Below, in pieces: positions 137 to 64,000 of a stretch of 64,000 nucleotides of DNA. The DNA comes from a virus (Duplodnaviria > Caudoviricetes). Positions within the stretch are counted from its first letter, which is position 1; every line of letters begins with the position of its first letter. The notes below the pieces were generated by a model. That model was not told where the DNA came from. It did not search any database and saw only the letters and a list, made by a program, of their open reading frames with translations. A program made the position numbers and the translations under genes. The stretch lies in IMG/VR virus record IMGVR_UViG_3300014656_000022, positions 9,544 through 73,543 of that record, one strand, 5' to 3'.

Positions 137-2214
137 TATTCTTCAAACTTCCCTATCTTCTTAGACCCACCCATGAGAGTATATTCTTCCACAGCAGGAG
201 ACAAGTTCAAGTATGCACTATTTCTTCTAAGAATTATGAGGAGATAGCACTCAGAGTATGAAACAATGTCATTCTCTTGGTCCTCTTCCATTACAATAAC
301 ATGATTTTCATTCCGCCTGATAGATAAATCTCCTGTGAGGTCAACTACTTGAAGACCTCCAACTGACGTAAAAGCCCCATATGGAGGATCTGGTCTCACT
401 GATGTGCTAGACGCCATAGGTGTATAACTAACAGTAAAGATATCGGATTCGGATGCTCCAACAATTTGTATTTTAAATGTCATTGGATTATTATTGTTAG
501 GAGTTTTCAGTGCAGTGGTAGTAATAGGAGAAGCTTGTCTCCACCCTATAGTAGAAGTTACATTCCCATCTAAGTTATCGATTTCAATTCCATTTCTGTA
601 GACAATTACATCTCCATCTCCTTCGCCGCCATAGTCACAAACTGTGTAGAACATTGTCTGTCCTACGTCATTTATTGCTGCAGATGTTGTACTCTTCTCT
701 GTGAGAAATAGTCTCTCATGGTGAATTCTAGTGGTTGCAAGAGGAAGAATGCTAAACCTGATAGTTCTAACTAGAATACCATCTGCGTTATAATCTCTCT
801 TTACTATCCAATATTCAATACTCCCTAGATAAATATCGTCATCATCTCCATCGTATGTAGTGCTTGTATACTCTATCTCTCCTGAGAGAGAACTAATGAC
901 TGGTCTACTCTCTAGTGTCTTGAGACCTAGATTGCTCTTTCCTTCTAGTCTGAGAGGAGTAGATACATATACTCCAGTATCTCTATATCTAGCTAACCCT
1001 ATATTAATATTGTCGAAACCAGTAGTAAAAGCATATCCTGTGTAGACTTGAGCTTCTTCCTTAGAGATTTTAGCTAAATCCTTACCTTTCTTGGAGGAGA
1101 TAATATCTGAGAGATTGTCTGAGATTCCAGATAGCTTCATCATTCCTTCATTCCTAGAAGGAAGCTTATCTTCTACTCTCATTAGCTGGTTAAACAATGT
1201 GTCATTCTGAAGATGTTGTAAGCTTTCGAGTCTTCCATTCTCGTTTCTAAAGACGAGAGTAATTTTTCTAGTAAGGATTTTCCTTGTCTGAACACCTATC
1301 GACCCCTCAAAATAAATATCTGGTTCTGAAAGAATCTTTGTTATTCCATCACTATCAAGGAAATAAATGCTCTCTAAATAAAGCCCTTGTTTAAGGACTG
1401 GTTCAATCTGAATCCAGTTAATCTCTCTCTTTATTCCTAGGTCCAACTCTAGCTTTATATTGATGCTCTTCTGGGTATTGGTAAAATATACTGATTGAAT
1501 CCAGTAGGTTCCTTTGATTCTGTCAATAACATTCTGAAGCTTAAGTGTTGGGCTCTCAAAGATAGCTTCACTCTGTGGTGTATCTGCGTCAAATATTTGT
1601 CTAATGGCAGATATAGAATAGGTCTCCTGACTCTCTGTAGCAAGCAGTAATCTCTCCCCAGTTAGGTCTATGTAGGCATCGTAGCTCGAATCGATAGTTT
1701 CTTTTGACCTCGGGTCCAGGAAAAGAGTTTGATTCTCCTTCTTTCTGGGAGTTCTTTCTAACCTGCTTTCGCGAAATGTCGTGAACACTGAAGACCCAAA
1801 CCCATAGGTGTTACTACCAAGAGTCTCATAGAGAGATATCTTGCTCTCAAGCTCTGCTACTCCTGCTCGAAGATTCTTGAGGATTACATCTCTAACAATA
1901 GCTTCATGAGCTTTTTGGACTTCATCAATCTTGTTGGCTTCTTCGAAAGCTGCCGAGAGATCGTCTTCTACTCGGTCTAGCATATAATTATGCTTCTCAG
2001 AACTAATAGTCTCACCTGGACCTACAGGAAAGACTTGTAGTGTAGGTTGTAGAATAGTACTAGTCAGTTCTCTAATGAGTCCTTCTAACCTCTGTGTAAA
2101 CTCATCTACAGTACGTATTTGGCCAGCATTCTTCTTTCTATTGAGGAGCTTAATAATCTGATCGGCTTGTCGCTTTCCAATGAGTCCATTGAACTTATCT
2201 AGGTATTCTGCCAT
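136..2214 (-). CDS. Virion structural protein, baseplate/fibre region, 692 aa, function unknown
   Basis: Long ORF, TAATG-coupled at both ends; helical N-terminus then beta-rich body; distal to baseplate genes. Confidence 0.6.
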   Translation of the reverse strand: MAEYLDKFNGLIGKRQADQIIKLLNRKKNAGQIRTVDEFTQRLEGLIRELTSTILQPTLQVFPVGPGETISSEKHNYMLDRVEDDLSAAFEEANKIDEVQKAHEAIVRDVILKNLRAGVAELESKISLYETLGSNTYGFGSSVFTTFRESRLERTPRKKENQTLFLDPRSKETIDSSYDAYIDLTGERLLLATESQETYSISAIRQIFDADTPQSEAIFESPTLKLQNVIDRIKGTYWIQSVYFTNTQKSINIKLELDLGIKREINWIQIEPVLKQGLYLESIYFLDSDGITKILSEPDIYFEGSIGVQTRKILTRKITLVFRNENGRLESLQHLQNDTLFNQLMRVEDKLPSRNEGMMKLSGISDNLSDIISSKKGKDLAKISKEEAQVYTGYAFTTGFDNINIGLARYRDTGVYVSTPLRLEGKSNLGLKTLESRPVISSLSGEIEYTSTTYDGDDDDIYLGSIEYWIVKRDYNADGILVRTIRFSILPLATTRIHHERLFLTEKSTTSAAINDVGQTMFYTVCDYGGEGDGDVIVYRNGIEIDNLDGNVTSTIGWRQASPITTTALKTPNNNNPMTFKIQIVGASESDIFTVSYTPMASSTSVRPDPPYGAFTSVGGLQVVDLTGDLSIRRNENHVIVMEEDQENDIVSYSECYLLIILRRNSAYLNLSPAVEEYTLMGGSKKIGKFEE

Positions 2215-33101: not shown

Positions 33102-35444
33102 TTATCTACCTCTATACTTTCTTTGTATTCCAACTTTATTTAAATAGGCTAAATATTGGTCTCTCCCCGAAATTAGAAGACTGCTACCTGAAACCTCTTG
33201 TTTATTCAGCATATATCCTTTATCCAACTGAGATAGTTTTCTACGGCCGACAGCAGTCATAATATCTATATCTCTGGCTACAAATTGCATAACGCTTTCA
33301 CTAAGTAAGTCCTCAATAGAGAACGTTATACCATCGTTTACAAATTCGAGGCCATATATTCCCATTCTTGAGACGCTTCCATATTCATTAGCAAAAACAA
33401 TAGTACAGTCAATTGGAGGCAATTGGTCTGGGATTAGACTAGATAGTTCTGTATCTAAGATAGTTTCTCCATAATACTTTGCGTGGTCCATAGACCTGAG
33501 AAGAACAGCTAATGCATGCTCACTGAAGGTAGTAAATATCATACTACCAGCAATTGTATTATGTACTGCAATAAAATTACAAATAAACTGATGTCTATCT
33601 TCTACTTCTAGATCATAGACTGCTAATTTTCCAACTTGCTCTTTTTTAACGACCTTGATCTCTTGGTATTCTGGCGGTAGACTTGTTAATAAATCCGCAA
33701 TATGAGAATGGACCCAATAGTTAAGTTCTGAATCGTTAAGAACCCTAGCAATACTTAAAGCCCTTTTAATACTTAAGGGCCGGTTCTTTTGATAAAGATT
33801 AAACTTAATACCTAATTGCTTTGTGGGAAACCCTTGACGTTTGCTAGCCTTTTTAACTTCTGCAATAAATTCCTTGGGTTCTTCTGTTAAAATAGCTAGA
33901 CTTCGAGAAAGAATTAAGTCTTGGTAAGGTCTAATTCGCTCATCCTTACCAAAAATACCTACCAAGGAAACAAACTTATAAAGATTAAAGCTATCAGAAA
34001 TAACTAGTTTATATGCATCATGCTTGCTAATTATTGAAGGTCGACCTCCTACCTTTCCAACCTCTGCACTCTTGTTCTTAAGACAATGTATGCCTAACTT
34101 ACTTAACAACAATCTGACTCCATCTATTAATTCTTCAGATGTAGAACAATAAGATGCTTCTATGTATTTTAAGTCTTTAGATATTGAATATCCACCGTCG
34201 GTAGAAAAAAGATATTGGAGATAAAGAATAATTTGTCGTCTAGAGAGATTAGCTAAAAAATCATTAGGGACAAACTTCTGATGACTATATTTGTCATACA
34301 AGCCATATCGTAAAAGTGCTTCATGTAATGAATTATATTTTCTAAGCTTCCAGGATGTTTTACCTGTACCTGTACAAACGCTAATTCTTCTGTCTATACA
34401 ACCCTTTTTCTGAACATCTGTAAATGGTATTTCTAGAGACTTGAGGATATTACTAGTTTCCTCCCCAATAGTTAGCATCTCCTCGTTTTTAATAGATAAA
34501 GTAATCCGATGTTCGATACTATTATTTGCTTTTGGATATCGATGTAAACCCCCATCACCAGTTAACAATGCAATAAGTTTAAGTAAATAATCTGGGATAT
34601 CATTATCTTCTTCTGGAACGGGGGTATATCCGACAGATAATACCTTATCTCCGACAATTAGCTCGTTTGCCTTTGTCCAACCACTTGGAGTAAGAACAGG
34701 ATGATCACAAGAAGCTGAAAGAGTATATCCATTTTCAAACGTTAGCTTAACGCATTCTTTATATCTTTGAGCAAAAGACCCAAGTACCTTATTATAGGTT
34801 TTGGCTGTAGATTGTACTAAGTCTCCTGGCAAAACATCTGCTACACTTATATAGCCCCTATCTTTGACAAGTACTTTTTCTGTAGCAGGTAAACATCTTT
34901 GACCTCGACAATAACCCTTAACGTAGCTCTGTCCCATTGCTCGCACTGGATATTTCTCTCTATGAGATTGAACAGAGAGGGTTTGTAGAGTTGCTAGAGT
35001 AACGGTTTCTACATGGTCCTCAAGTGCTTGTTGTTGATTTAAAATGTACTCTTCTAAATGGCTTATCTCTTGTTCAAGCCTCACAACATCAGGATGATAA
35101 GTTGGGTCTGTAGGCCCACTTTGGTATCGATTAATAAGAGTCCTTCTACCCGCTATTTCACTTTCAATGTTGGTAATATCATCGTTGATTATTTTACTAT
35201 CACTATCTTGTACTTTATACATATGTACTACTACTTTGATATCTGCCCCGGCGTAAGAGCTTCCTAGCCAATCTATATAGGTATAGTCGTCCTTATATCC
35301 TCTTAGACTCTCAGAAAGTCTAGAGTTTCCTGCTCCATTTCTCAAATCAGTGAGACCAACATCAGTACTTTGTGTTCCAGCTTTAGAACTAATAGTTGGA
35401 ATTTTTACAGTTGAACTGGGAGGAGAAGATTTGTATTCAGTCAT
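33102..35444 (-). CDS. Tail tube-like protein (paralogue 2) with coiled-coil insert and intein
   Basis: YAGADIKVV...LQTLSVQSHREKYPVRAMG...RGQR|TIAGSMIF...LPPIDCTIVFANEYG matches the adjacent tube gene. Confidence 0.75.
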   Translation of the reverse strand: MTEYKSSPPSSTVKIPTISSKAGTQSTDVGLTDLRNGAGNSRLSESLRGYKDDYTYIDWLGSSYAGADIKVVVHMYKVQDSDSKIINDDITNIESEIAGRRTLINRYQSGPTDPTYHPDVVRLEQEISHLEEYILNQQQALEDHVETVTLATLQTLSVQSHREKYPVRAMGQSYVKGYCRGQRCLPATEKVLVKDRGYISVADVLPGDLVQSTAKTYNKVLGSFAQRYKECVKLTFENGYTLSASCDHPVLTPSGWTKANELIVGDKVLSVGYTPVPEEDNDIPDYLLKLIALLTGDGGLHRYPKANNSIEHRITLSIKNEEMLTIGEETSNILKSLEIPFTDVQKKGCIDRRISVCTGTGKTSWKLRKYNSLHEALLRYGLYDKYSHQKFVPNDFLANLSRRQIILYLQYLFSTDGGYSISKDLKYIEASYCSTSEELIDGVRLLLSKLGIHCLKNKSAEVGKVGGRPSIISKHDAYKLVISDSFNLYKFVSLVGIFGKDERIRPYQDLILSRSLAILTEEPKEFIAEVKKASKRQGFPTKQLGIKFNLYQKNRPLSIKRALSIARVLNDSELNYWVHSHIADLLTSLPPEYQEIKVVKKEQVGKLAVYDLEVEDRHQFICNFIAVHNTIAGSMIFTTFSEHALAVLLRSMDHAKYYGETILDTELSSLIPDQLPPIDCTIVFANEYGSVSRMGIYGLEFVNDGITFSIEDLLSESVMQFVARDIDIMTAVGRRKLSQLDKGYMLNKQEVSGSSLLISGRDQYLAYLNKVGIQRKYRGR
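33558..34895 (-). mobile_element. Intein with LAGLIDADG homing endonuclease (446 aa) in tube paralogue 2
   Basis: RGQR|CLPATEKV ... VYDLEVEDRHQFICNFIAVHN|TIAG; motifs LIALLTGDGG and YLQYLFSTDGG. Confidence 0.93.
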
Positions 35445-46421: not shown

Positions 46422-49400
46422 TTATTTACCTTTCAAACCGTTAGAACAGATTGCAAGGGCAGATAACTCAATTTTGTCTTCACTCCATCCTGGATGGTCC
46501 TGTTCTAGTCTTGTTTTTACTTTTTGAACATAATGTTCTAACTTAACTTTATTTTGAGTAGTTATATCTTGAAGAACATGATCGCAGGCTGTCTCTGCCT
46601 GAATTTCAAGTTGTTCTTCGCTCCAGTCTGGATGTTGGACTCTAAGTCTTGTTTTAGTTTTCATCACACACTTAACAAATTGAGCCTTCTTTGATTTAGG
46701 TCCAAGAGTAGACTTGGTCTTCTTATGTGCATCCTGGACACTGGTTTCCGTAGCTAAGAGGACACACCCACAATTTGCATGAAATGGAGGAATGTCATCT
46801 ATATCCATGAGACTTGGATTATATAGCTCCCTTGAACGAGCGAGACAATCGTCACAGGGTTCTGGAGTAGTATTCTCTAGTTTGAGACTTACTACTTCTG
46901 TATCTCTCCATCTAACTAGTTGACCAAAACCATATCCTTTTCGGACTTCGACATCTTCAATAAAAGCTGTCCTGTAACGCAATGCACTAAAAACAGACCT
47001 GGTATTTAGAGCTATATTACTAAGAGGCTCCAGATTATCTACCCTTTTTTGAAGAAGAGAAACAATGTCATTGGTTAGCTTGGTAACAAAATGATTTGCA
47101 CGCTCAGTAAAAATAGTTCTAGCATAAGCAGTTCTTTGAATAAATTCAGGTCCTACAGCTCCACCCTGATGCAAATACCCACTTCTAAATGCAACAACCT
47201 GCTCAGCAATGAGTTGCTGAATAGTTGTTTCCATCTGGGCTCTAATTAGTTGCCCGACCCAATCATGTTCTAGTTGTCCCTTGATTTGAACATGAGCTAT
47301 AGCTCCCTCTGTAATCAAATCGAACGTATTGGCTAAATACCCATCTCTAGACTTTGGCCTAGATGGTCTTGTTGTAACGACGTTCTTCTTTTGTTTTGCT
47401 TTAGCAATAGCAGCTTTTTGCTTCTCTAATTCTATGTCCTTTTCTTGGGTCTCTGTCTTTGCAGTTTGTATATCAGACTCGGTTGTAATGAGAGAACTGG
47501 ACCTAGCTACAGCCTTAGCGAGTGCGCTCCACGGCTCATCCAGACTTTGTATTAATAGTTTGGGTTCTTCGTAGAGTTTCCAGTTGGTTCTGTTCCATTC
47601 TGGAAATTCATCACCACCGTCTCTCTCAGCTTCAATGTCTTCTCTTGATGGGATACGAAGAGGTTCTAAACCACAACCCAGCCTTCTTGTTTCGTCAAGA
47701 GTAATAATGTTCTTATTAAATTGGTCAGCATAGTGAGCTTCCTTTTTAATTTGAACATCAATATCTATTTCTTTAAAGCGGAGAAAACATTTATTTTCCT
47801 CATTGAGAACATCATCTCCATATGTACTCTCTAATAGTAGCTCATTTATAACATAGGTGTTAAAGAAGGTTTCAAAGACTTGTTGATAATCCTTTACACT
47901 GTCGATCAGGTTTCTAGAAAGATTATCGCTAGTACTTCTGTTTACAGTATTCCCCTGGATCGTCACTTTTCCATTACGTCTTGTGATATAAAGATGATGA
48001 GGAACATTGTAACAATAGATACCACCAGAATATTCTTTACTAGTAATCATTTGTGATTGAACTAGTCTATGTTGAACACTGGTTCTTGGAGAAGAAATAT
48101 AGACTCTCCACATTGGGTTTTTACCCCACGCTGCTTGGTCTTGTTCTACAAGAACAACTTTAGCATTATATCCTAAGGATAATGCTAAAATTTGAACATC
48201 ATCTGCCAACCCCTTGCTAGACGTATAGTAAGTCTTAAATTTACCTAGACCTTCATCCCACCCATCTCCTATAACCAAGGCCTGTAGAAGAGCTTCTCTA
48301 GCCTTTTGAGGCCACTCTAAGGCAAATAAAGGTATCCGCTTGTTTTTTGATCCATGCGGTACGTTCTTTCTAAGAAAAGAATATAAAGTTTTACCGTATA
48401 TCTTAATGCCAGACTGATTACTTTTTTTACTCTTGATTTTACTATAAGAAAGTCCTATTCGATCAGCATTTTGACAAATTAGGTCTAAATTTGCCCCTTT
48501 ATTTTGAGATATAAGTGTTCGATAGAAACCCTTGTTACCGTTAGATTTATCTATACATCCCTCAGAAATAAAGTAACCTAAGAATTCTGCAAAATCTACA
48601 AGCTGGCACGAAATACTCTTGCAAGGACCACCTCTTTTCGCTTTAGAAGCCTTGATAAAAAATCTATCTTTAGTTAAATTTTTATCTTCAAGAGGAGCAC
48701 TTTCTAAGACATAAAACTCTGTTCCATATTTATTATCTAATAACTCTTTTGCTTCAATAATCTCCCAACTATCTCTCCACTTAGCCTTAACCCACATTCT
48801 GTGGTGAGGAGTTACTTGAATATCTAAATGCTGACCCTGAATATGAATCATTTCTCCAGTATAATCATTAGCATATTTATAGTTAGCAAAACGATATTCT
48901 ACTTTCCATATATCTGGATTGAAGACAGCTATTTTCTCTTTTGTGTGGTCGATTTCGTAATGATATTTCCACCCATTCTCTGTTAAAGTTTGAGTGTCAT
49001 CTGAATAACATTCGCCTTCTCCGAGATCTACACTAGAAATACCAAGACCAGCTATTACCCTTTGTTTAAAATGTTTGAGATACCCTTCAGCCCTGAGTGC
49101 TCTTCCTTCAGCCCCAATAGCTTTAATATCATGCCTTTCTGGGGTAACTATTCCTCCTTCTGTAGGCATACGTTGAATCTCTGCTTTTACTACATCAATC
49201 TCTTTATACCCATCTTCTGTATATCCTGCTGGAGACTCTGGAGTACCTACTTTGTACTGGAAAAGAGGAAATAAATGTTGATAAATGAGTAGCTCTAAAT
49301 TTTCCTCAATTTTGCGAAGAGCACGAATATCATCTAAAACCGGGACCAAAAGAGGTGTTCCGTAAAGGAAGCCATCTTTTCTATCGTGGTAGAAATGGAT

Positions 49401-49991
49401 TACATCCTCTGGTTTATAGGTTCGATATGATCCATCTGGCATATGTTGCCGCCATTTGGATACTTTATTCCCAACCAGTTGACATTCCATTGTTTCAGCA
49501 GGAACAGGAAAGTATGCTGCTACTGGCTCTAGCTCTTTATTTGTTTGTGGGAGAGTTCTAATTTTTCCTCCAGATGCCTTTGTCTTTCTCACTTTTAAGA
49601 GAAAAGCATTAGATTTAAGGATTAAAGAAGCTCCAACCGCTCTGAAAAGCATCTTAGTTGAAAGACCAGAAGCCTGTTCTGTTTGAGCTAAACGAGTCTT
49701 TATGTAAGTAATAGTTTGCAGATTGGGACCAACCATATCCCAACCCTCTTTAAACATGAGTGCTGTCTTCTTAGCTATTGCTTGTCTGACAAAGGCTTCT
49801 GTATCCAGCACCTTTCCTAATTCGACTAAGTCATATTCCGGAACCTGAAAGGCTGATCTTCCTGTTCCATAAAGAGAACTATATGAAAGGACAGGATTCT
49901 TTACTGCAGGAATAAGAACAGGTTTAGAAGTCCGGGGGATATTGACTTGAGGCTCAGGAATCTTCTCCTGAATCTTAACTGTATCTTCCAA
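46422..49991 (-). CDS. Portal protein with intein and C-terminal gpF-like extension
   Basis: DVIHFYHDR...GTPLLVPVLDDIRALRKIEE...PLFQYKVG; TTG start with gggagg RBS; PPFHANCGC near the C-terminus. Confidence 0.85.
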   Translation of the reverse strand: MEDTVKIQEKIPEPQVNIPRTSKPVLIPAVKNPVLSYSSLYGTGRSAFQVPEYDLVELGKVLDTEAFVRQAIAKKTALMFKEGWDMVGPNLQTITYIKTRLAQTEQASGLSTKMLFRAVGASLILKSNAFLLKVRKTKASGGKIRTLPQTNKELEPVAAYFPVPAETMECQLVGNKVSKWRQHMPDGSYRTYKPEDVIHFYHDRKDGFLYGTPLLVPVLDDIRALRKIEENLELLIYQHLFPLFQYKVGTPESPAGYTEDGYKEIDVVKAEIQRMPTEGGIVTPERHDIKAIGAEGRALRAEGYLKHFKQRVIAGLGISSVDLGEGECYSDDTQTLTENGWKYHYEIDHTKEKIAVFNPDIWKVEYRFANYKYANDYTGEMIHIQGQHLDIQVTPHHRMWVKAKWRDSWEIIEAKELLDNKYGTEFYVLESAPLEDKNLTKDRFFIKASKAKRGGPCKSISCQLVDFAEFLGYFISEGCIDKSNGNKGFYRTLISQNKGANLDLICQNADRIGLSYSKIKSKKSNQSGIKIYGKTLYSFLRKNVPHGSKNKRIPLFALEWPQKAREALLQALVIGDGWDEGLGKFKTYYTSSKGLADDVQILALSLGYNAKVVLVEQDQAAWGKNPMWRVYISSPRTSVQHRLVQSQMITSKEYSGGIYCYNVPHHLYITRRNGKVTIQGNTVNRSTSDNLSRNLIDSVKDYQQVFETFFNTYVINELLLESTYGDDVLNEENKCFLRFKEIDIDVQIKKEAHYADQFNKNIITLDETRRLGCGLEPLRIPSREDIEAERDGGDEFPEWNRTNWKLYEEPKLLIQSLDEPWSALAKAVARSSSLITTESDIQTAKTETQEKDIELEKQKAAIAKAKQKKNVVTTRPSRPKSRDGYLANTFDLITEGAIAHVQIKGQLEHDWVGQLIRAQMETTIQQLIAEQVVAFRSGYLHQGGAVGPEFIQRTAYARTIFTERANHFVTKLTNDIVSLLQKRVDNLEPLSNIALNTRSVFSALRYRTAFIEDVEVRKGYGFGQLVRWRDTEVVSLKLENTTPEPCDDCLARSRELYNPSLMDIDDIPPFHANCGCVLLATETSVQDAHKKTKSTLGPKSKKAQFVKCVMKTKTRLRVQHPDWSEEQLEIQAETACDHVLQDITTQNKVKLEHYVQKVKTRLEQDHPGWSEDKIELSALAICSNGLKGK
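47949..49010 (-). mobile_element. Intein with LAGLIDADG homing endonuclease (354 aa) in portal
   Basis: GEGE|CYSDDTQTLT ... IYCYNVPHHLYITRRNGKVTIQGN|TVNRS; motifs FLGYFISEG and LLQALVIGDG. Confidence 0.92.
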
Positions 49992-53079: not shown

Positions 53080-56000
53080 CTAAATATTCTTTCTCTGTGG
53101 TTTCTTTATCCTAGGTCTCAGTCCAAACTTCATTTGAGCATCTCTTTCAGCTTGAGCAAGAGACCTAATTTTTGGTCTGGGCTGGTCATGTCCAAATCCA
53201 GGCCAATACCATAACCCAACCGAAGTTTCTCTGACAAGATGAGCACCAGGCATCTCCTGGTTGACACCCAACAAAGAAGTCTTCTCTATTCCAACCGTTC
53301 TACTCATTTCTGGCTTTGAGTTTGGTTTCTGTCTTTCATCTGATTTCATAGTTAAAGATATGTCCTGATCAGGAAGTGATTTCTCACCAAATTGACCAGA
53401 GAAAGCTATATCAGCAGAATACTTCGGTTTTCCAAATGGTGTCAACTCCATAGTGAAAGCAACTACTGAAAGCATGAGCCCGTCAAGTGTATGATCTCCA
53501 ATAGATTCATCTAGTGCTCCATATACAGGTACTCCTGCTGTAGTTTTCCTTTGAATAATGTATCCAGATAGTTGTCTCTCTAACTCTTCATCTGAATCAG
53601 AGAACTTAATATCTCCTGATTCAAACCTTCTAACAGTGCTTTCTACTAACCAAGCTTTTGCTGGTTTCTTTATTGGTTGCTTAGTAAATAAATCTCTTGT
53701 TTCTATTGTTCCACCAAACTCATATTTATGAACAATATCTTTCAATCTTGCATCAGGATGGTTCCTTCCTTTATTTCCATCAGCAGCACTATCATATCCA
53801 TATTTACGAAGGACTTCCCATTGTGTCGATCCATATCCTGAGTCGATATAGATAGCAATAGGTCTCCAAATCCTGTTTAGTTCAGCTATCTTTTGACAAG
53901 CAGCTAACTGAGTCCACCCTACCTTAGAAACAATACATCTGTCTACTACTTGAAAGATATTTCTAACAGGATTAAATCCAAGAACAACTATTGATGTGCC
54001 AATCTTAGTATCATTCCAGTCAACCCCAATAGTATATTTCCATCCTTGGGTGTAAGGGATACTTCCATATCTATAAGGAGACTTTGCGTGTTGGATATAG
54101 GCATTCTGGAATACACCTTGTTCTTGTTCACCAAATTCTGCTAGAGCCTCATGGATGTATCCAAGCTCTGTAAGTTGCTCCTTATACATCTGTTCCATTT
54201 CTGTATTCCACATTGGGTTAACAGATGAGGGGAAATAAAACTCTTTCCACAATGTAGAGAAACAAGTCTGAAAGAACTTCTCCCGCTTTCCAGAAGGAGT
54301 AGAACTCATCCAAACAGATGCATTCGGGTAGTTTGTAATGATTGATAGGGCCGCATCCATATCTGCAACCGCTAGATAATCTGCTTCGTCAAATACTAAG
54401 AGGTCAGCATGTTGTCCGCGAACAGCAGCAGCATTTCCACCAGATTTGGTTCCTGCAGTATTATGAAGAACTATACCATTAGCAACAAAATTATTTGTAC
54501 CGTCTCCAACAGAAAGATCGTAAGTAGTAGCTTTACCAATAGGTTCTATGCTCCGTATTTTATTGTAGGAGATGTCTGCAACGTCAACATCCCGTGTGTT
54601 TTTACAAGCTTCCAAACACTTCTCATAACAAATACCTTTAGCTGAAAGGTCTACTAAATCGAGCAGCTTTCTCGTATAGGCTTTTGATTTTATACATAGT
54701 TTATATAAATCATATCTTGAATGAATAACTCTCTGGTTTGTTGCAATCGGAGTATCTTTTCCCGCTTGTTTCTTACAGCGGATATGAGCTTTAATCCCAA
54801 AAGAGTTCAATAGATTTCTTACCCCAAAAACGAGTTCCTTGCTAATACTGCAAAAACCAGCAGTTCCATCTGATTGCAAAAACCCATCAGTTTCTAATAA
54901 GCCTTTTAAAAGACCTAATCGAATAGAAGAAGACTCATTAATTAATACTTGGGGAATAAACTTATTAATAGAAGTTTTATCATTAAGGCCATACTTGTAA
55001 ATCAATGCAGTTAGTTCTGTGTATGGTTTGTCCTGACATCTTCGATGTGGTACATTCATCCTCTTTCGAAGAGTATATTCTTTACTACCAGTTACTGAAT
55101 GAATTTGACTCCTATAACCAATCTTTAATTCAGCTAATGTATCTTCAAATTGCTTTTGAATCAGTGGATTCTTAGAAGTAAATCGTGGCCCTCCATCTGC
55201 AAGAGTCTTTTTGGTTATATTCCCATCTCCAAGAATTAATCCTAATAAGTAAGCTAATCTATCAGGCTGAGCACTAGAGGGAGGAAACTTAAAGTCATTA
55301 GCTATAGCTACATGATCTCCAACTGTTAACTCTTTCAAAGCTATCCATTTCTGGTTCTTTGTCCAAAAAGGATGATCTTCTGAGACTGTGACTTCATGTC
55401 CACTATTTAAGACTACTCTATAAACATCTTTATAGTTTGGAGCATAGACATATGTTACGGGAAGAAAAGTAAGATTATTATCCTCTTGTTTTGAAAGCAC
55501 TCGATCTTTTAAGGTAACGTCTTCTATATTTACTAATCCACGAGAAGTTACTATCTGTGTCCCAGCAACACAAGAGAAGCCCTTAATAATAGACTTATTA
55601 TTTAGCTCCATAGTATACATTGGAGCCTTAACATAACGACTCAGAGCATTTGTAGTTCCGGGATTTGATTTGATTAATTGCTCAAGACGTTTGAAAACTA
55701 AGTCAACCTGTGACTGATATGGAGCGATAACTATTACATCAAAGCCATCGTCCTGGGTCTTCCCTGGCTTAGTAAACATATTGTATAGGATAGCTACTGC
55801 TAGAGCTTCACTCTTACCAATTTGCCGACCCGCGCGGAATACCTTCCTCCGTGCCTGACACCGGGTCATGAGAGCCTGATATGGCCTATGATACCTGGAC
55901 TGGCCAAGAATACTCTCACCAGGATGGTTACCTACCCACTCATTGTACTCTTCGGGGTTCTTTCTTTTCCAAATTTCCCCGTCTGGGTCCAGACAATGCC

Positions 56001-56211
56001 AATCAAGTGTCTCTGCAGCCCATCTAACAGGATCTAATACAGATAAAGCTGTATCCTGTTCTGAAGTTTCTCCAAATAAGGAAAGCTGTTCATAGTCTGG
56101 TATGCCAGTACATTTGATTTTAAACTTTTGGCCTGCAACTAATTTGTGTTTGCTTTTATATCCTTTAATACAATTGAGACAGGTCTTGTCACACTGGGTA
56201 AGGTCTAACAC
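53080..56211 (-). CDS. terL: Terminase large subunit with intein
   Basis: Walker A AGRQIGKS, Walker B LLVFDEAD, motif MSSTP, nuclease IGVDWN and DHTLDG. Confidence 0.95.
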   Translation of the reverse strand: MLDLTQCDKTCLNCIKGYKSKHKLVAGQKFKIKCTGIPDYEQLSLFGETSEQDTALSVLDPVRWAAETLDWHCLDPDGEIWKRKNPEEYNEWVGNHPGESILGQSRYHRPYQALMTRCQARRKVFRAGRQIGKSEALAVAILYNMFTKPGKTQDDGFDVIVIAPYQSQVDLVFKRLEQLIKSNPGTTNALSRYVKAPMYTMELNNKSIIKGFSCVAGTQIVTSRGLVNIEDVTLKDRVLSKQEDNNLTFLPVTYVYAPNYKDVYRVVLNSGHEVTVSEDHPFWTKNQKWIALKELTVGDHVAIANDFKFPPSSAQPDRLAYLLGLILGDGNITKKTLADGGPRFTSKNPLIQKQFEDTLAELKIGYRSQIHSVTGSKEYTLRKRMNVPHRRCQDKPYTELTALIYKYGLNDKTSINKFIPQVLINESSSIRLGLLKGLLETDGFLQSDGTAGFCSISKELVFGVRNLLNSFGIKAHIRCKKQAGKDTPIATNQRVIHSRYDLYKLCIKSKAYTRKLLDLVDLSAKGICYEKCLEACKNTRDVDVADISYNKIRSIEPIGKATTYDLSVGDGTNNFVANGIVLHNTAGTKSGGNAAAVRGQHADLLVFDEADYLAVADMDAALSIITNYPNASVWMSSTPSGKREKFFQTCFSTLWKEFYFPSSVNPMWNTEMEQMYKEQLTELGYIHEALAEFGEQEQGVFQNAYIQHAKSPYRYGSIPYTQGWKYTIGVDWNDTKIGTSIVVLGFNPVRNIFQVVDRCIVSKVGWTQLAACQKIAELNRIWRPIAIYIDSGYGSTQWEVLRKYGYDSAADGNKGRNHPDARLKDIVHKYEFGGTIETRDLFTKQPIKKPAKAWLVESTVRRFESGDIKFSDSDEELERQLSGYIIQRKTTAGVPVYGALDESIGDHTLDGLMLSVVAFTMELTPFGKPKYSADIAFSGQFGEKSLPDQDISLTMKSDERQKPNSKPEMSRTVGIEKTSLLGVNQEMPGAHLVRETSVGLWYWPGFGHDQPRPKIRSLAQAERDAQMKFGLRPRIKKPQRKNI
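54460..55575 (-). mobile_element. Intein with LAGLIDADG homing endonuclease (about 372 aa) in terL
   Basis: KGF|SCVAGTQIV ... TYDLSVGDGTNNFVANGIVLHN|TAGTK; motifs LLGLILGDG and LLKGLLETDG; the N-junction could be Ser 55575 or Cys 55572. Confidence 0.92.
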
Positions 56212-61000: not shown

Positions 61001-61506
61001 TGTTCCCAGAGTTTTGGCTCAACGAGGGGCTTGTACTTCTCCTGACCGATAATGCCAGCCAATCTGACAGATGTCTCATGTCCAATGTCTCTAATCTTGA
61101 GACTTCCAAAGGCTTCTTGATATTGCTTCTCTAATCCATACTTCTCTGCCCGCGTGAGAAGCATAGGAATATCAAATCCACGAGTTCTGGTTTCTCCTAG
61201 GACCTGCGGAGCTATTTCATATCCAATATTCCATCCAGCTACAGTAGACCCTTTAGCACCCTTCAGGACGCCCAAAAATTGGCTGAGAGCCTCTCTTTCA
61301 GTTAGGGTAGGGGGGTAGGTAGCCTTCAGTGGATTCCAGACGTTACGAGCCGACCAGGAAGACATCTTTGTCCCTGGGACTGGATGGGCAGATAGGGTCT
61401 TCTCTCCATAGGAAATGGAGTAGATTGAGGAATAGTGACCTGAGAGAGACCCAGCCTCTATATCGAATACGAAGGGCCTATTCACCTGGTCCTTCCCACT
61501 CCGCAT
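58072..61506 (-). CDS. Multidomain protein: DEDDh exonuclease + caspase/CHAT-like protease + HExxH metallopeptidase
   Basis: VFDIE / GWNI...GFD / AHLSSVD; IFFSGHG...VMESCN; AHESFH...FEEYLA; two TM-like helices each followed by a 35-aa repeat. Confidence 0.75.
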   Translation of the reverse strand: MRSGKDQVNRPFVFDIEAGSLSGHYSSIYSISYGEKTLSAHPVPGTKMSSWSARNVWNPLKATYPPTLTEREALSQFLGVLKGAKGSTVAGWNIGYEIAPQVLGETRTRGFDIPMLLTRAEKYGLEKQYQEAFGSLKIRDIGHETSVRLAGIIGQEKYKPLVEPKLWEQARSYYQNAAEVRKSGASVAAQARFLATEGYKFSGWKQSTIYEILTGQAPVGAHLSSVDIQTTREIAGFNWNLSSEAETALVKRWGRLSLRDKLLSQAKAGRPLENLVLQASESGITTEFSTGLRNLLQEYGLKTLPPGGIKETYSTVRDWSLLEKTGKFLRKNKFKAGMGAGALLSIPLIINSFSGRDDNFNVIEGLRHDGIAGGLRQRNTDFGSGWIGLLKSWSLNIGLSLSLLSGGVLPSAPAISQASRIAQVTSYTTHLKVGADWLNLVGDPEFYWQDKGSSVALEKLGVETRVVSSWPEAIRTVQESGRRNIFFSGHGVGGTGFGIYNPATGKYEIASAAWIGKHLPEQQGYKIVMESCNARSSLRTNRGLRVAEVTKSAKSLGYPINALYDVKGFKSTNVFVETKLGLSQSLTAGINLPRKTTIPFSGQQGIEPILLETIAGKAELTNVPTKRWIQRGGPSWGRWTGWETSRETLSEQSLRSLEQTYEELLARQHPRLAKFISGRTTITFSVLDSNNPIGAPNRAGLDSPLASRVPGIIEERRTGATVLRQNVVKKRLSRVYRPPEIRSGFSSWAPRPAINTFAAEAASNASVVSKRTVEAIAKSGAGVTPAKAITGAGERAIVSQGVRIPWKGVLAGGITLGGIALLVNAFSGKDDSYNTIEGFQHRGLAGRQRRQMTGFGSGFIEVPKILGEVFAKSYGKRAAGAQIARTELTGFWGAFRSQAEKAVLGLPQTERKAFTSAFEKMREEITAAHASKLQGIGFVSELGVQQQAKVLGVPFEQVMAGTRAHESFHMAVSELGLRETIRTQAQATEKVGEWLLGAGKGYAGNPYAFEEYLAAAIESRYYSGSTTSLTQLVRAEKGLTSLTERLAPLKSGQKIAERLPVHTIEDLTTKREILKQQYSEALGIRLKSQPPPLPKKSGPPPLPKQVQRQQKWQQAHSDGVQQAWQHGVRPGTRHTKQTGKIPGS
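58927..60450 (-). repeat. Two copies of a 35-aa module (60346-60450 and 58927-59031)
   Basis: FSGRDDNFNVIEGLRHDGIAGGLRQRNTDFGSGWI vs FSGKDDSYNTIEGFQHRGLAGRQRRQMTGFGSGFI, 20/35 identical by hand. Confidence 0.9.
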
Positions 61507-62230
61507 CGATTATATCCTGAGGAGAAAGAGCTGGTTGACCTCCTGAATCCATCGTTCTCTGTAATTCTCTCAGTTTTGCATGAAGTAGGGCCTGTTGAGA
61601 TGAAGTGTCAGAATCATCTCTCTGTTTGAGAGCAGCTTCCTTCTTATACTTCTCTTGTCTATCCCCGACCATTAGTTTGATTATCTTTGATTTACGGGCA
61701 AGAAGCTTTTCTCTTATCTCTATGAAAGGAGAAATCTGTTTCTGAACTACTGGGAGACCTTCTCTATTTACCCCCACGGTTTGGTCAATAATCATCTCCG
61801 CATTTCCTGGTTTCGCGAGGGACATATTAATTCTCATCAATCTAATCTCTATCTCAGCTAATTCATTCACATATCCAATTTCAGTAAAGTTCTCTGGATC
61901 TACATCATATTCCTCAAAGTATCTGATTGCCCATTCCTTGAGAAGCTGACTTTCTAAAATGCAAACTTTTCCTACGGGAGATTTCCCTATCTGAGAAAGA
62001 GGACATCTTTCAGCGAAGGGACAGAAATCTGTTCCTCCACAAAATATTGGCACCATAGCAAAGGAACCAGTAGATAGCTTCTGAAGATGCTTCTGAATAC
62101 GAAGAGCTTCCTTTTCGGTGAGCTGCAACTCGTACTCATCCAAATCATGCTTCAAAAAACGGAGATAGGTCTTCTTAGTTAACTTCTCTGATATCTCAAC
62201 CTTCTCAATAGGGACTAACTCTTTACTCAT
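61478..62230 (-). CDS. Hypothetical protein with Cys cluster, possible terminase small subunit
   Basis: C-x5-C-x5-C-x12-C cluster then helical region; near the operon start upstream of terL; terS call is positional only. Confidence 0.4.
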   Translation of the reverse strand: MSKELVPIEKVEISEKLTKKTYLRFLKHDLDEYELQLTEKEALRIQKHLQKLSTGSFAMVPIFCGGTDFCPFAERCPLSQIGKSPVGKVCILESQLLKEWAIRYFEEYDVDPENFTEIGYVNELAEIEIRLMRINMSLAKPGNAEMIIDQTVGVNREGLPVVQKQISPFIEIREKLLARKSKIIKLMVGDRQEKYKKEAALKQRDDSDTSSQQALLHAKLRELQRTMDSGGQPALSPQDIIDAEWEGPGE

Positions 62231-62477
62231 TAGGAGTCCTACCTTCCACTACATCAACAATGTCATGAATCTCTATTATCCTATCACGAATCTCTTCATA
62301 GTCCTCACTTGTAAATAAATCTAGAGACCTCTGATAATCCTTACAATTCTGTCCCATTATCCTTCTCAAATGATAGGTTCTCTCAACCCCACTATCATCT
62401 AATCTATCCTTCAATTCAGATAGCTTTCTACGTAGTAATTCTAATTCCTGCACTAATTGTTCTCCAGGAGTTAACAT
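62223..62477 (-). CDS. Small helical hypothetical protein, first gene of the leftward operon
   Basis: 84-aa ORF overlapping the next gene start. Confidence 0.6.
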   Translation of the reverse strand: MLTPGEQLVQELELLRRKLSELKDRLDDSGVERTYHLRRIMGQNCKDYQRSLDLFTSEDYEEIRDRIIEIHDIVDVVEGRTPNE

Positions 62478-62489
62478 GTTGAAAAGGTT

Positions 62490-62518
62490 AGCATAAAAGT
62501 TGCTCTAAAGGGAGTAAA
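62490..62518 (-). promoter_or_regulatory. Possible sigma70-like promoter for the leftward operon
   Basis: TTTACT (62518-62513), 17-nt spacer, TATGCT (62495-62490), AT-rich upstream; 12 nt before ATG with no SD. Confidence 0.35.
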
Positions 62519-62676
62519 TTTAGAAATAAAATTTCCCTATAGGGCCGAAACTGAAACATTTTCAGCAGGGTACCTATATAGATTATCCCTATCCTTGGGA
62601 CCCCTATTGTTCGAGTACCCCGGGTCGACTTTCACAGTCTATAGAAATTCTTCTTGGATTGTGAGAGTTAGACCTA

Positions 62677-62733
62677 TAACTAGGGAAGGAATTAGTTCTT
62701 TCCCGCCTTTTAAAGAAAGAGAGAGAAGAGATG
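62677..62733 (+). promoter_or_regulatory. Hairpin + purine-rich RBS leader, copy 1 (other copies about 62975-63025 and 63743-63782; RBS part only at 63457-63473)
   Basis: TTAG-containing hairpin loop followed by ttt(t)aa(a)g..gagagaagagATGAA; copies 1 and 2 also share taactagg. Confidence 0.65.
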
Positions 62734-62904
62734 AAAGAAGAACAGAAAGTTGCTCTCGTTAAGTTGTCTCATGACATCGGTCTGGTGCTTGAAGGGACGG
62801 TAGACGATGGTTCGATTATGCGCCAGGAGCTGGACGCGGCCCGGAAGAAAATCAATGAGATCCTCGGCGTCGAACGTCTGCTGATCATGTTCCCGATCGA
62901 TTAG
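62731..62904 (+). CDS. Small hypothetical protein, 57 aa (MKEEQKVALVKLSHDIG...), below the ORF-track cutoff
   Basis: Open frame from ATG 62731 to TAG 62904 with the same RBS as neighbouring genes. Confidence 0.75.
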   Translation: MKEEQKVALVKLSHDIGLVLEGTVDDGSIMRQELDAARKKINEILGVERLLIMFPID

Positions 62905-62965
62905 GCCGAAACATCAGGGTTCTACCCCCTGGTGTCTAGTGGTTATACCACTACTGATGAGGTCT
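62903..62965 (+). ncRNA. Type II hammerhead ribozyme
   Basis: aggcc-GAAA-stem III (9 bp)-GUC cleavage triplet (C62936)-stem I uagugg/ccacua-CUGAUGA-ggucu; all core nucleotides and three stems present. Confidence 0.9.
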
Positions 62966-63022
62966 CTTATCAGTTAACTAGGTGGAATGGTTAGTCTATT
63001 CCCCGCTTTAAGGAGAGAAGAG

Positions 63023-63343
63023 ATGAAGAAGACTACTCAGAACATGTTAATCGGCGCTGGTGTTGGCTTTGGTCTCGGCTGCGTGGCTGGTGTCCTTCGG
63101 ATTGGGGCTGCCTTTTGCCCCCCGGTCTGGCCTGTGGCTGATGCCATCGTCGTTGGTAGCCTGGTCTACCAGGTGAGTGATGAGAACATCGGGCTCACTG
63201 CTATCGGAGCCACGGCTGGGTTTATCATGGGCCTTGGTGAGGTTGCAGTAGCTCCCGTGTCAACTGCCCTGATGTTGGCTCAGGTCCCTCTCTGTCCCCT
63301 CTTTGGGGCAGCTCTCGGCGCCGTGATCGGCCATCAGCAGTAG
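63023..63343 (+). CDS. Small glycine-zipper membrane protein, 106 aa
   Basis: Start moved to ATG 63023 behind aaggagagaagag; several hydrophobic GxxxG helices. Confidence 0.75.
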   Translation: MKKTTQNMLIGAGVGFGLGCVAGVLRIGAAFCPPVWPVADAIVVGSLVYQVSDENIGLTAIGATAGFIMGLGEVAVAPVSTALMLAQVPLCPLFGAALGAVIGHQQ

Positions 63344-63470
63344 TACTGTCTGATTGACCCCTCAAGCACCTGGTCAAGTGGGTAAACTGACCAATCCTGG
63401 TAATGTGTATGCCCTGGTGGACCAGGGTAAGCCTATGTCAGGCAGGGGCATACATACAAGGAGAGAAGAG

Positions 63471-63701
63471 ATGAAGAAATGGAGAGTATTGTGTGATCTA
63501 CCTCAGGGTGAGATGCCCTTCTTGCAGCCCTGGCAGCAGAGGACTGCTCGTCTGCTCGACGACCTGGAGAGCATCTATCCCGTGCCCTCAGATCCAGACT
63601 TGGATAAGTTCGGTGCTCTGAGTGAGTGGGTGGATACCGCACCCTTGCTGGGTTGCGAGGTACACTTCGTGCGACAGTTCATTGCCGAGAACATCTGCTA
63701 G
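63471..63701 (+). CDS. Small hypothetical protein, 76 aa (MKKWRVLCDL...)
   Basis: Start moved to ATG 63471 behind aaggagagaagag. Confidence 0.75.
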   Translation: MKKWRVLCDLPQGEMPFLQPWQQRTARLLDDLESIYPVPSDPDLDKFGALSEWVDTAPLLGCEVHFVRQFIAENIC

Positions 63702-63713
63702 TCCCTAGCGCCT

Positions 63714-63739
63714 TGAGGGGTTAAGCAATTAGCCCCTCA
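63714..63739 (+). other. 11-bp intergenic hairpin with GCAA tetraloop
   Basis: tgaggggttaa-gcaa-ttagcccctca (one G-U pair). Confidence 0.7.
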
Positions 63740-63779
63740 CACGGTGGGAATTAGCCCATCTACTTTAAGGAGAAGAGAG

Positions 63780-63953
63780 ATGAAGAAGAACCTGTTGGAC
63801 CAGATGAGTAAGGTCTTCAACCAGTACCACTACATGTGTAGGTGCATGGATGAGGGGGATGAGAACCACTGTGATACGGTGGTGTCCCACGAGATGCACT
63901 CTTTGTTCCTCCAGATGATTGTCCTCAAGAAGATGATGGAGAATATGAAGTGA
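63780..63953 (+). CDS. Small hypothetical protein, 57 aa (MKKNLLDQM...)
   Basis: Start moved to ATG 63780 behind aaggagaagagag. Confidence 0.7.
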   Translation: MKKNLLDQMSKVFNQYHYMCRCMDEGDENHCDTVVSHEMHSLFLQMIVLKKMMENMK

Positions 63954-64000
63954 ATACTACCGTAAAGCTTCCTGAGGGGTATATCCCCCCCGGAAGTGAA
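63950..64000 (+). CDS. Start of next gene, truncated by the window (MNTTVKLPEGYIPPEV...)
   Basis: GTG overlapping the previous TGA (GTGA), ggag upstream, frame open to the end. Confidence 0.45.
   Translation, partial: MNTTVKLPEGYIPPGSE

Follow-up and report, generated by a model that had tools for sequence, protein, structure and literature searches.

A compact type II hammerhead ribozyme at an early gene junction of a phage contig, with flanks predicted to mask its catalytic core

The first intergenic gap of a rightward, early-type gene block in the contig of a large, uncultured phage is occupied by a complete type II hammerhead ribozyme motif of 63 nt (62903–62965, plus strand), recognized by its sequence, its fold, a structural descriptor and a covariance model of our own. 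Coordinates refer to the window, that is, the whole stretch of DNA analysed: 64,000 nt, positions 9,544 to 73,543 of IMG/VR virus record IMGVR_UViG_3300014656_000022. Judged by its sequence, the site is a genuine type II hammerhead and falls into a compact subclass without the published pseudoknot. The self-cleaving RNA would probably cut the early transcript after C62936, separating the mRNA of the first early ORF (ORF1) from the downstream message. Type II hammerheads among phage genes have been known since 2011 (PMC3088659), and the window adds a clean example, not a new principle. What is mildly unusual here is that the neighbouring sequence can, in predicted folds, mask the catalytic core.

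The core is canonical at each of its 13 positions, as are the three helices, and the 21 stem pairs contain no mismatch. The motif begins with the 3′ strand of stem II, AGGCC (62903–62907), which pairs with GGUCU at 62961–62965, and continues with the core nucleotides G12, A13, A14 and A15.1, read from the sequence as GAAA (62908–62911). Stem III (62911–62935) is a 9-bp hairpin with a 7-nt loop, UUCUACC; its pairing, 62911–62919 with 62927–62935, includes one U·G and the A15.1–U16.1 pair, formed by A62911 and U62935. GUC lies at 62934–62936, with C62936, and not a G, as H17, and the hammerhead consensus, in which cleavage follows GUC, places the predicted scissile bond between C17 (62936) and U62937. 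Stem I (62937–62953), evident from sequence and fold, is the hairpin UAGUGGU-UAU-ACCACUA, in which 62937–62943 pair with 62947–62953, so that 6 bp and a closing U-A enclose the triloop UAU. The core strand CUGAUGA (C3–A9; 62954–62960) and the 5′ strand of stem II, GGUCU from G10.1 onward (62961–62965), complete the sequence, and the G10.1–C11.1 pair is present as G62961–C62907, closing stem II at the core. Stems I and III are hairpin-closed and stem II is open, both in the minimum free energy (MFE) structure of the 63-mer and in the descriptor match, which is the type II topology. The ribozyme overlaps the TAG stop codon of the 57-aa ORF1 (62902–62904) by 2 nt, A62903 being its middle base. 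The preliminary description of this DNA, made from the letters alone, had anticipated these features: on re-reading, every hammerhead element that it listed lies at the coordinates it gave, its call of a complete type II hammerhead agrees with the canonical core and helices and with the 63-mer fold, the 5′ arm does include part of the TAG, and the next leader does begin 10 nt past the ribozyme (AACTAGG starts at 62976 and the ribozyme ends at 62965).

Folded in isolation, the 63-mer has as its MFE structure exactly the hammerhead three-way junction (−24.4 kcal/mol, z −2.5). On both strands of the whole 73,543-bp contig, a type II descriptor that demands the core, UH and the three stems returned this single site, with stems of 7/5/9 bp; a type I/III descriptor run over the contig gave only two 2-bp non-candidates. 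In 300 dinucleotide shuffles, descriptor matches averaged 0.17 per genome with 2/2/2-bp stems and 0.007 with 3/3/3, and none arose with 4/3/4; for the core pattern by itself, 0.05 occurrences in a window would be expected. A mere chance likeness to the hammerhead consensus, for which the only point is that the Rfam model RF02276 does not match the site, is on these figures vanishingly improbable; the unique match in the contig and the shuffle counts rule out a chance origin of the motif.

A search against the Rfam Hammerhead_II model, which the preliminary description had proposed as a check, failed to recover the site. At gathering thresholds, Rfam gave no match anywhere in the window, and RF02276, whose gathering score is 37 bits, did not match the site at E≤10 on a 301-nt segment or in a dedicated search of the contig. 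When Rfam was searched permissively with the same 301 nt, nothing appeared but RAGATH-1-hammerhead, in a partial match of 16 bits that spans GAAAC, stem III and GUC. In five unrelated viral records RF02276 does recover hammerheads of type II, with just 21–39 bits for the compact copies (in loci L087 and L013), and it also misses both perfect hammerheads of a distantly related locus, L127, described below. Its failure here reflects a limit of the model and not a defect of the site. Since RF02276 scores the compact, pseudoknot-less class poorly, annotation based on Rfam under-counts this subclass.

For comparison, viral type II hammerheads were gathered from IMG/VR by their core pattern (loci L002–L120, 119 hammerhead-bearing). 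The descriptor identified 106 well-formed type II hammerheads in 63 of these loci, frequently in arrays of up to nine. A covariance model, R1, built from 36 compact viral type II hammerheads, none of them from the lineage of the window phage, gives the window site 53.5 bits (E 1.3e-14), a value that falls among those of its own training members. Because the window meets the descriptor by which these members had been selected, the score speaks for typicality and is not independent proof. A count of covarying pairs on the model-fitted alignment is likewise largely circular, because the members were chosen for their pairing. Kinship between the window phage and the 119 hammerhead-bearing loci was considered and rejected, as tblastn with all ORFs of the contig detected no shared proteins.

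We define the compact subclass by a stem I hairpin of 17–18 nt with a triloop and a U·G or U-A closing pair, together with a 4-bp stem II; an A stands immediately 5′ of stem II in 35 of 38 members. The subclass is abundant and repeated in arrays in the IMG/VR sample. The window ribozyme fits it, with a stem I of 17 nt and 7 bp, a triloop, GGCC/GGUC as stem II, and A62903 as the preceding A. It shares the U of the class at the loop-closing position, with a U-A closing pair where the class has U·G. It deviates in that U62965 can pair with A62903 to form a fifth stem II pair, a U at this position being found in two of the 38 members.

The published type II consensus includes a pseudoknot of at least 4 bp between loop I and the sequence 3′ of stem II, on which rapid cleavage at low Mg2+ depends (PMC3088659). 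In the window, a pseudoknot between loop I and the tail was sought and rejected: three A-U pairs at best could form. Among the gathered hammerheads with a stem I hairpin of at least 21 nt, 67% have the potential for a pseudoknot of at least 4 bp, against 20% with shuffled tails, whereas the figures for a 17–18-nt stem I are 8% and 6% in shuffles, i.e. no signal. With the published pseudoknot absent, the compact subclass may not cleave fast at physiological Mg2+.

The linear contig, whose completeness CheckV puts at an estimated 39%, carries capsid, portal and intein-bearing structural genes as well as long leftward operons. In the window, Pfam matched nothing but structural genes, with capsid, portal and intein domains. 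Intein and/or LAGLIDADG homing-endonuclease domains were detected by Pfam in three structural or packaging genes, all on the minus strand: an intein in a DEAD-like ATPase (53080–56211), LAGLIDADG in the portal gene (46422–49991) and an intein in a 780-aa protein (33102–35444). The rightward, early-type block begins at approximately 62617 and holds four small ORFs before the contig ends; of its three visible junctions, one contains the ribozyme and the other two contain other hairpins.

ORF1 (62731–62904, plus strand) is followed by ORF2, which on the basis of its leader and hydropathy encodes a hydrophobic protein of 106 aa (63023–63343, plus strand). The rightward genes have a common leader, which places the start of ORF2 probably at 63023, behind that conserved leader, rather than at the upstream in-frame ATG at 62987. 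The leader of ORF2 (62976–63022, plus strand) consists of AACTAGG, a hairpin at 62981–63004 with a GGUUAG-type loop, and the Shine-Dalgarno region AAGGAGAGAAGAG. The ending TTTAAGGAGAGAAGAG-ATG-AAG-AA is common to the leaders of all four rightward genes (62976–63022, 62676–62730, 63741–63779 and 63454–63470), and in three of them a hairpin with an AAUUAG or GGUUAG loop precedes it. Upstream of ORF1 lies a motif, ACCCCGGGT (62617–62625, plus strand), for which 14 of 26 related loci have a conserved counterpart. A single copy of the palindrome, ACCCC(C)GGG(G)T, precedes the first early ORF by 35–114 nt in the window and likewise in L121, L122, L124–L127, L132, L133, L135, L138 and L140–L142. Candidate roles of ACCCCGGGT are those of an early promoter, an operator or a leader element.

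Between the four rightward ORFs, neither a sigma70-like promoter nor an intrinsic terminator was detected. PHROG and Pfam assigned no family to the flanking ORFs, a search of viral contigs with the ORF2 protein returned no relatives, and blastn of 61400–64000 against GenBank phages gave no match. Over the rest of the contig and the related loci, Rfam detected only two twister ribozymes in L125, a tRNA and a spurious miRNA-like hairpin.

Relatives of the window phage were found through the adjacent leftward gene for a 250-aa protein, which retrieved 11 viral and 20 metagenomic loci at 34–64% identity. The four early ORFs gave nothing significant by tblastn against these 31 loci; the early leader motif is conserved among the relatives although the early ORFs are not. 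Since the early ORFs are not conserved, any synteny or orthology with L127 and L125 is positional only. A search with model R1 found the hammerhead absent from 29 of the 31 loci. In L127 (47% identity), the order is a small first ORF, a hammerhead, a gene for a 96-aa membrane protein, a second hammerhead and the next ORF. Both are compact type II hammerheads on the minus strand (2076–2131 and 1706–1761), scoring 66.5 and 56.2 bits with model R1, and they leave 22 and 8 nt, respectively, before the start codon that follows. All three stems differ in sequence from those of the window ribozyme, with the pairing kept, and the second has a GUA cleavage site.

In L125 (55% identity), twister-P5 ribozymes of 44.2 and 37.6 bits (1231–1309 and ~905–975, minus strand) directly follow the stop codons of the first and second early ORFs, each about 33 nt before the next start. 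L122, L126 and L138 have other multi-hairpin modules at their early junctions, with no Rfam match. These three-hairpin modules of approximately 90–135 nt (minus strand; L122:4641–4778, L122:4104–4232, L126:4288–4398, L126:3902–3990, L138:1304–1415 and L138:2008–2143) comprise one hairpin of the form AGGGG...CCCCU, one that varies and often has CAUGGUG as its loop, and a GAGGGAAUGUCCCUC hairpin ahead of the ribosome-binding site; the modules of the three loci align poorly. Standing where relatives have ribozymes, they might serve as promoters, as binding sites for proteins or as a processing element not yet described. A partial hammerhead-like match of 18.7 bits in an early junction of L122 (3853–3912, minus strand) has GAC-GAAAC and CUGAUGU-GUC merely 14 nt apart, which leaves no room for stems I and III, and it looks like a decayed remnant of a hammerhead.

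On this comparative evidence, the lineage appears to place interchangeable self-cleaving ribozymes, with cleavage predicted from their sequences, at the junctions of its early operon. Hammerheads and twisters tend to share contexts (PMC6765202). A hammerhead, a twister or another structured RNA at the same junctions supports a need for a cut that is independent of ribozyme class.

The overlap with the stop codon of ORF1 has many counterparts. Among 109 viral type II hammerheads, an upstream ORF of at least 40 codons ends within −2 to +60 nt of the ribozyme start in 97 and within −2 to +4 nt in 71 (65%), with 22 overlapping the stop codon, and the next start codon lies at a median of 23 nt past the ribozyme. 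Abutting or overlapping a stop codon is thus ordinary for viral type II hammerheads and not special to the window. As these ribozymes start near the upstream stop, a terminating ribosome would cover their 5′ part; stop-adjacent starts in about two thirds of the 109 point to an interplay with terminating ribosomes that may be general.

That phage hammerheads cut long or early transcripts is the standard published hypothesis (PMC3088659; PMC6765202). The cut proposed here, with a 5′-OH on the downstream mRNA, is the same hypothesis; it fits the comparative context and is partly supported. We infer that transcription starting from the conserved leader upstream of ORF1 would read through the gap. 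Once the 5′ strand of stem II emerges, the three-way junction would form and the RNA would cut itself after C62936. The upstream product, the ORF1 mRNA, would then end in the 9-bp stem III hairpin with a 2′,3′-cyclic phosphate, and the downstream product, the mRNA of the membrane protein, would carry its 5′-OH directly on the 7-bp stem I hairpin. Type II topology puts stem III on the upstream 3′ end and stem I on the downstream 5′ end, so that both ends would be hairpin-capped. Joined solely by the 4–5 bp of stem II, the products would separate. After stem II melts, the tail CUUAUCAG may refold on CUGAUGAG beside stem I, as in the predicted centroid fold, locking the product and blocking re-ligation. 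The hairpin-protected ends of both products would allow the two messages separate stability and translation. For such a processing role speak the hammerheads of L127 and the twisters of L125, which follow the first and second early ORFs. Against it, the hairpin leader that separates ORF2 from the ribozyme may act as a promoter, in which case the 5′-OH end would be irrelevant to ORF2. More broadly, bacteria and phages carry thousands of hammerheads whose biological role is for the most part still to be proven (PMC6765202).

Within its native flanks, the predicted minimum of the RNA is not the hammerhead. The tail CUUAUCAG (62966–62973, plus strand) can pair with CUGAUGAG (62954–62961) in a helix of 8 bp with one G·U and a GUCU loop, which in the predicted fold masks the catalytic strand. 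A second competitor lies inside ORF1 (62864–62873, plus strand) and is predicted to pair with 62897–62909, which includes the 3′ strand of stem II as well as G12 and A13. The active fold lies 5.3–11.6 kcal/mol above the MFE: to force it takes 5.3 kcal/mol when just the tail is included and 7.9–11.6 kcal/mol when the flanks are longer. It is the MFE structure only when the 3′ end falls at 62963–62971, and then only without the upstream 43 nt. When 108 other viral hammerheads are treated alike, the misfolding penalty of the window ranks in the top 1–6%, and a fraction of about 0.0014 (0.14%) of composition-matched shuffled tails forms an anti-core helix of 8 bp. Nearest-neighbour energies ignore the stabilization of the hammerhead core and of tertiary contacts, and the modelled masking folds are best taken as a caution and a lead, not as proof of inactivity. 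Being thermodynamically favoured, the masking helices would probably limit cleavage to a short co-transcriptional window or leave it partial.

These folds suggest a reading in which the ribozyme is gated or attenuated: the helix with the coding region and the anti-core tail would mask the core, and the cut would take place in a brief interval during transcription or when ribosomes ending ORF1 melt the upstream helix. The cut fraction, and hence ORF2 expression, would then be tuned by the speed of transcription or by ORF1 translation. The rarity of the anti-core helix among shuffled tails, the narrow range of 3′ ends at which the active fold is the minimum and the outlying misfolding penalty all favour it, as does the overlap with the stop codon, by which a terminating ribosome must presumably cover the 5′ part of the ribozyme. 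Comparable tails also exist elsewhere, with AUCAG following the first hammerhead of L127 and an exact CRUCAG tail at offset 0, covarying with CUGAYGA, in four other members of the compact class. However, viral type II hammerheads as a whole show no enrichment of anti-core tails, a helix of at least 6 bp being present in 6 of 109 against 3.7 in shuffles; we therefore reject such tails as a general trait and confine them to a small subset. The energies, moreover, carry the omission noted above. We regard this reading, on the modelled folds, as unlikely, and it refines the main explanation rather than competing with it. The stronger statement, that this is a naturally gated hammerhead whose cut is set by transcription kinetics or by ribosomes at the overlapping stop, and that the CRUCAG-tailed compact subset shares the mechanism, is improbable on the same modelling. 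If it were true, gating would amount to a translation-coupled switch for the downstream membrane protein. Through its self-masking flanks, the site allows regulation of such ribozymes to be put to the test.

Processing of a joint transcript also has to be weighed against readings in which the downstream product plays no part. The hairpin leaders could give each early gene its own promoter, possibly for an RNA polymerase of the phage, with the hammerhead trimming read-through from ORF1 and leaving an irrelevant stub downstream; it would then substitute for a terminator and provide the ORF1 mRNA with a hairpin 3′ end. The AAGGAGAGAAGAG-ATG-AAG leader common to the four rightward genes, the lack of intrinsic terminators in the rightward block and the location of the window ribozyme upstream of the leader, not against the ribosome-binding site, are consistent with this, but the hammerheads of L127 leave no room for a promoter before the next start, and the twisters of L125 are similarly close. 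Such short spacing means that the downstream product must be mRNA in these relatives, and a ribozyme at one of the window's three visible junctions is no general substitute for terminators. We therefore consider such an arrangement improbable. It is very unlikely that the motif is an inactive relic, intact in sequence but misfolding in its context or devoid of a productive tertiary contact, and without present function. The missing pseudoknot, the strong competing folds, the absence of the hammerhead from most relatives and the apparent remnant in L122 would agree with a relic, but a core and 21 stem pairs without mismatch are unexpected under decay, and the compact class is abundant and arrayed. 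Cleavage that separates the ORF1 mRNA from the downstream message is accordingly the reading we prefer.

The closest known systems are the type II hammerheads of Perreault et al. 2011 (PMC3088659; RF02276), which have the same catalytic core and permuted topology, lie in intergenic positions among small phage genes and have the same proposed role. Unlike these, the window ribozyme lacks the consensus pseudoknot, carries a triloop on its 7-bp stem I and 4–5 bp in stem II, receives no score from RF02276 and is followed by a 3′ tail that can pair with its catalytic strand. Clustered hammerheads and twisters that flank single phage genes (PMC3088659; PMC6765202) occupy the same position, abutting a stop codon and preceding a gene, and their co-occurrence of classes is matched by the hammerheads of L127 and the twisters of L125. 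In contrast to such clusters, a single ribozyme is visible in the window contig, whose early block ends at the contig end.

In viroid and satellite RNAs, hammerhead activity is controlled by alternative folds, and the active fold of the window ribozyme is similarly predicted to compete with more stable helices, so that its cleavage would be kinetic. Those RNAs are replicating circular genomes that need both cleavage and ligation, whereas the window ribozyme is an mRNA element of a DNA phage with no sign of circularization. The glmS ribozyme, in turn, depends on a metabolite and destabilizes its own mRNA, its 5′-OH product being a substrate of RNase J1 in Bacillus. The window shares with glmS a self-cleavage, here predicted, in an mRNA leader that would yield a 5′-OH end setting the fate of the downstream message; it differs in that no ligand is indicated and in that the 5′-terminal hairpin would more likely protect the product.
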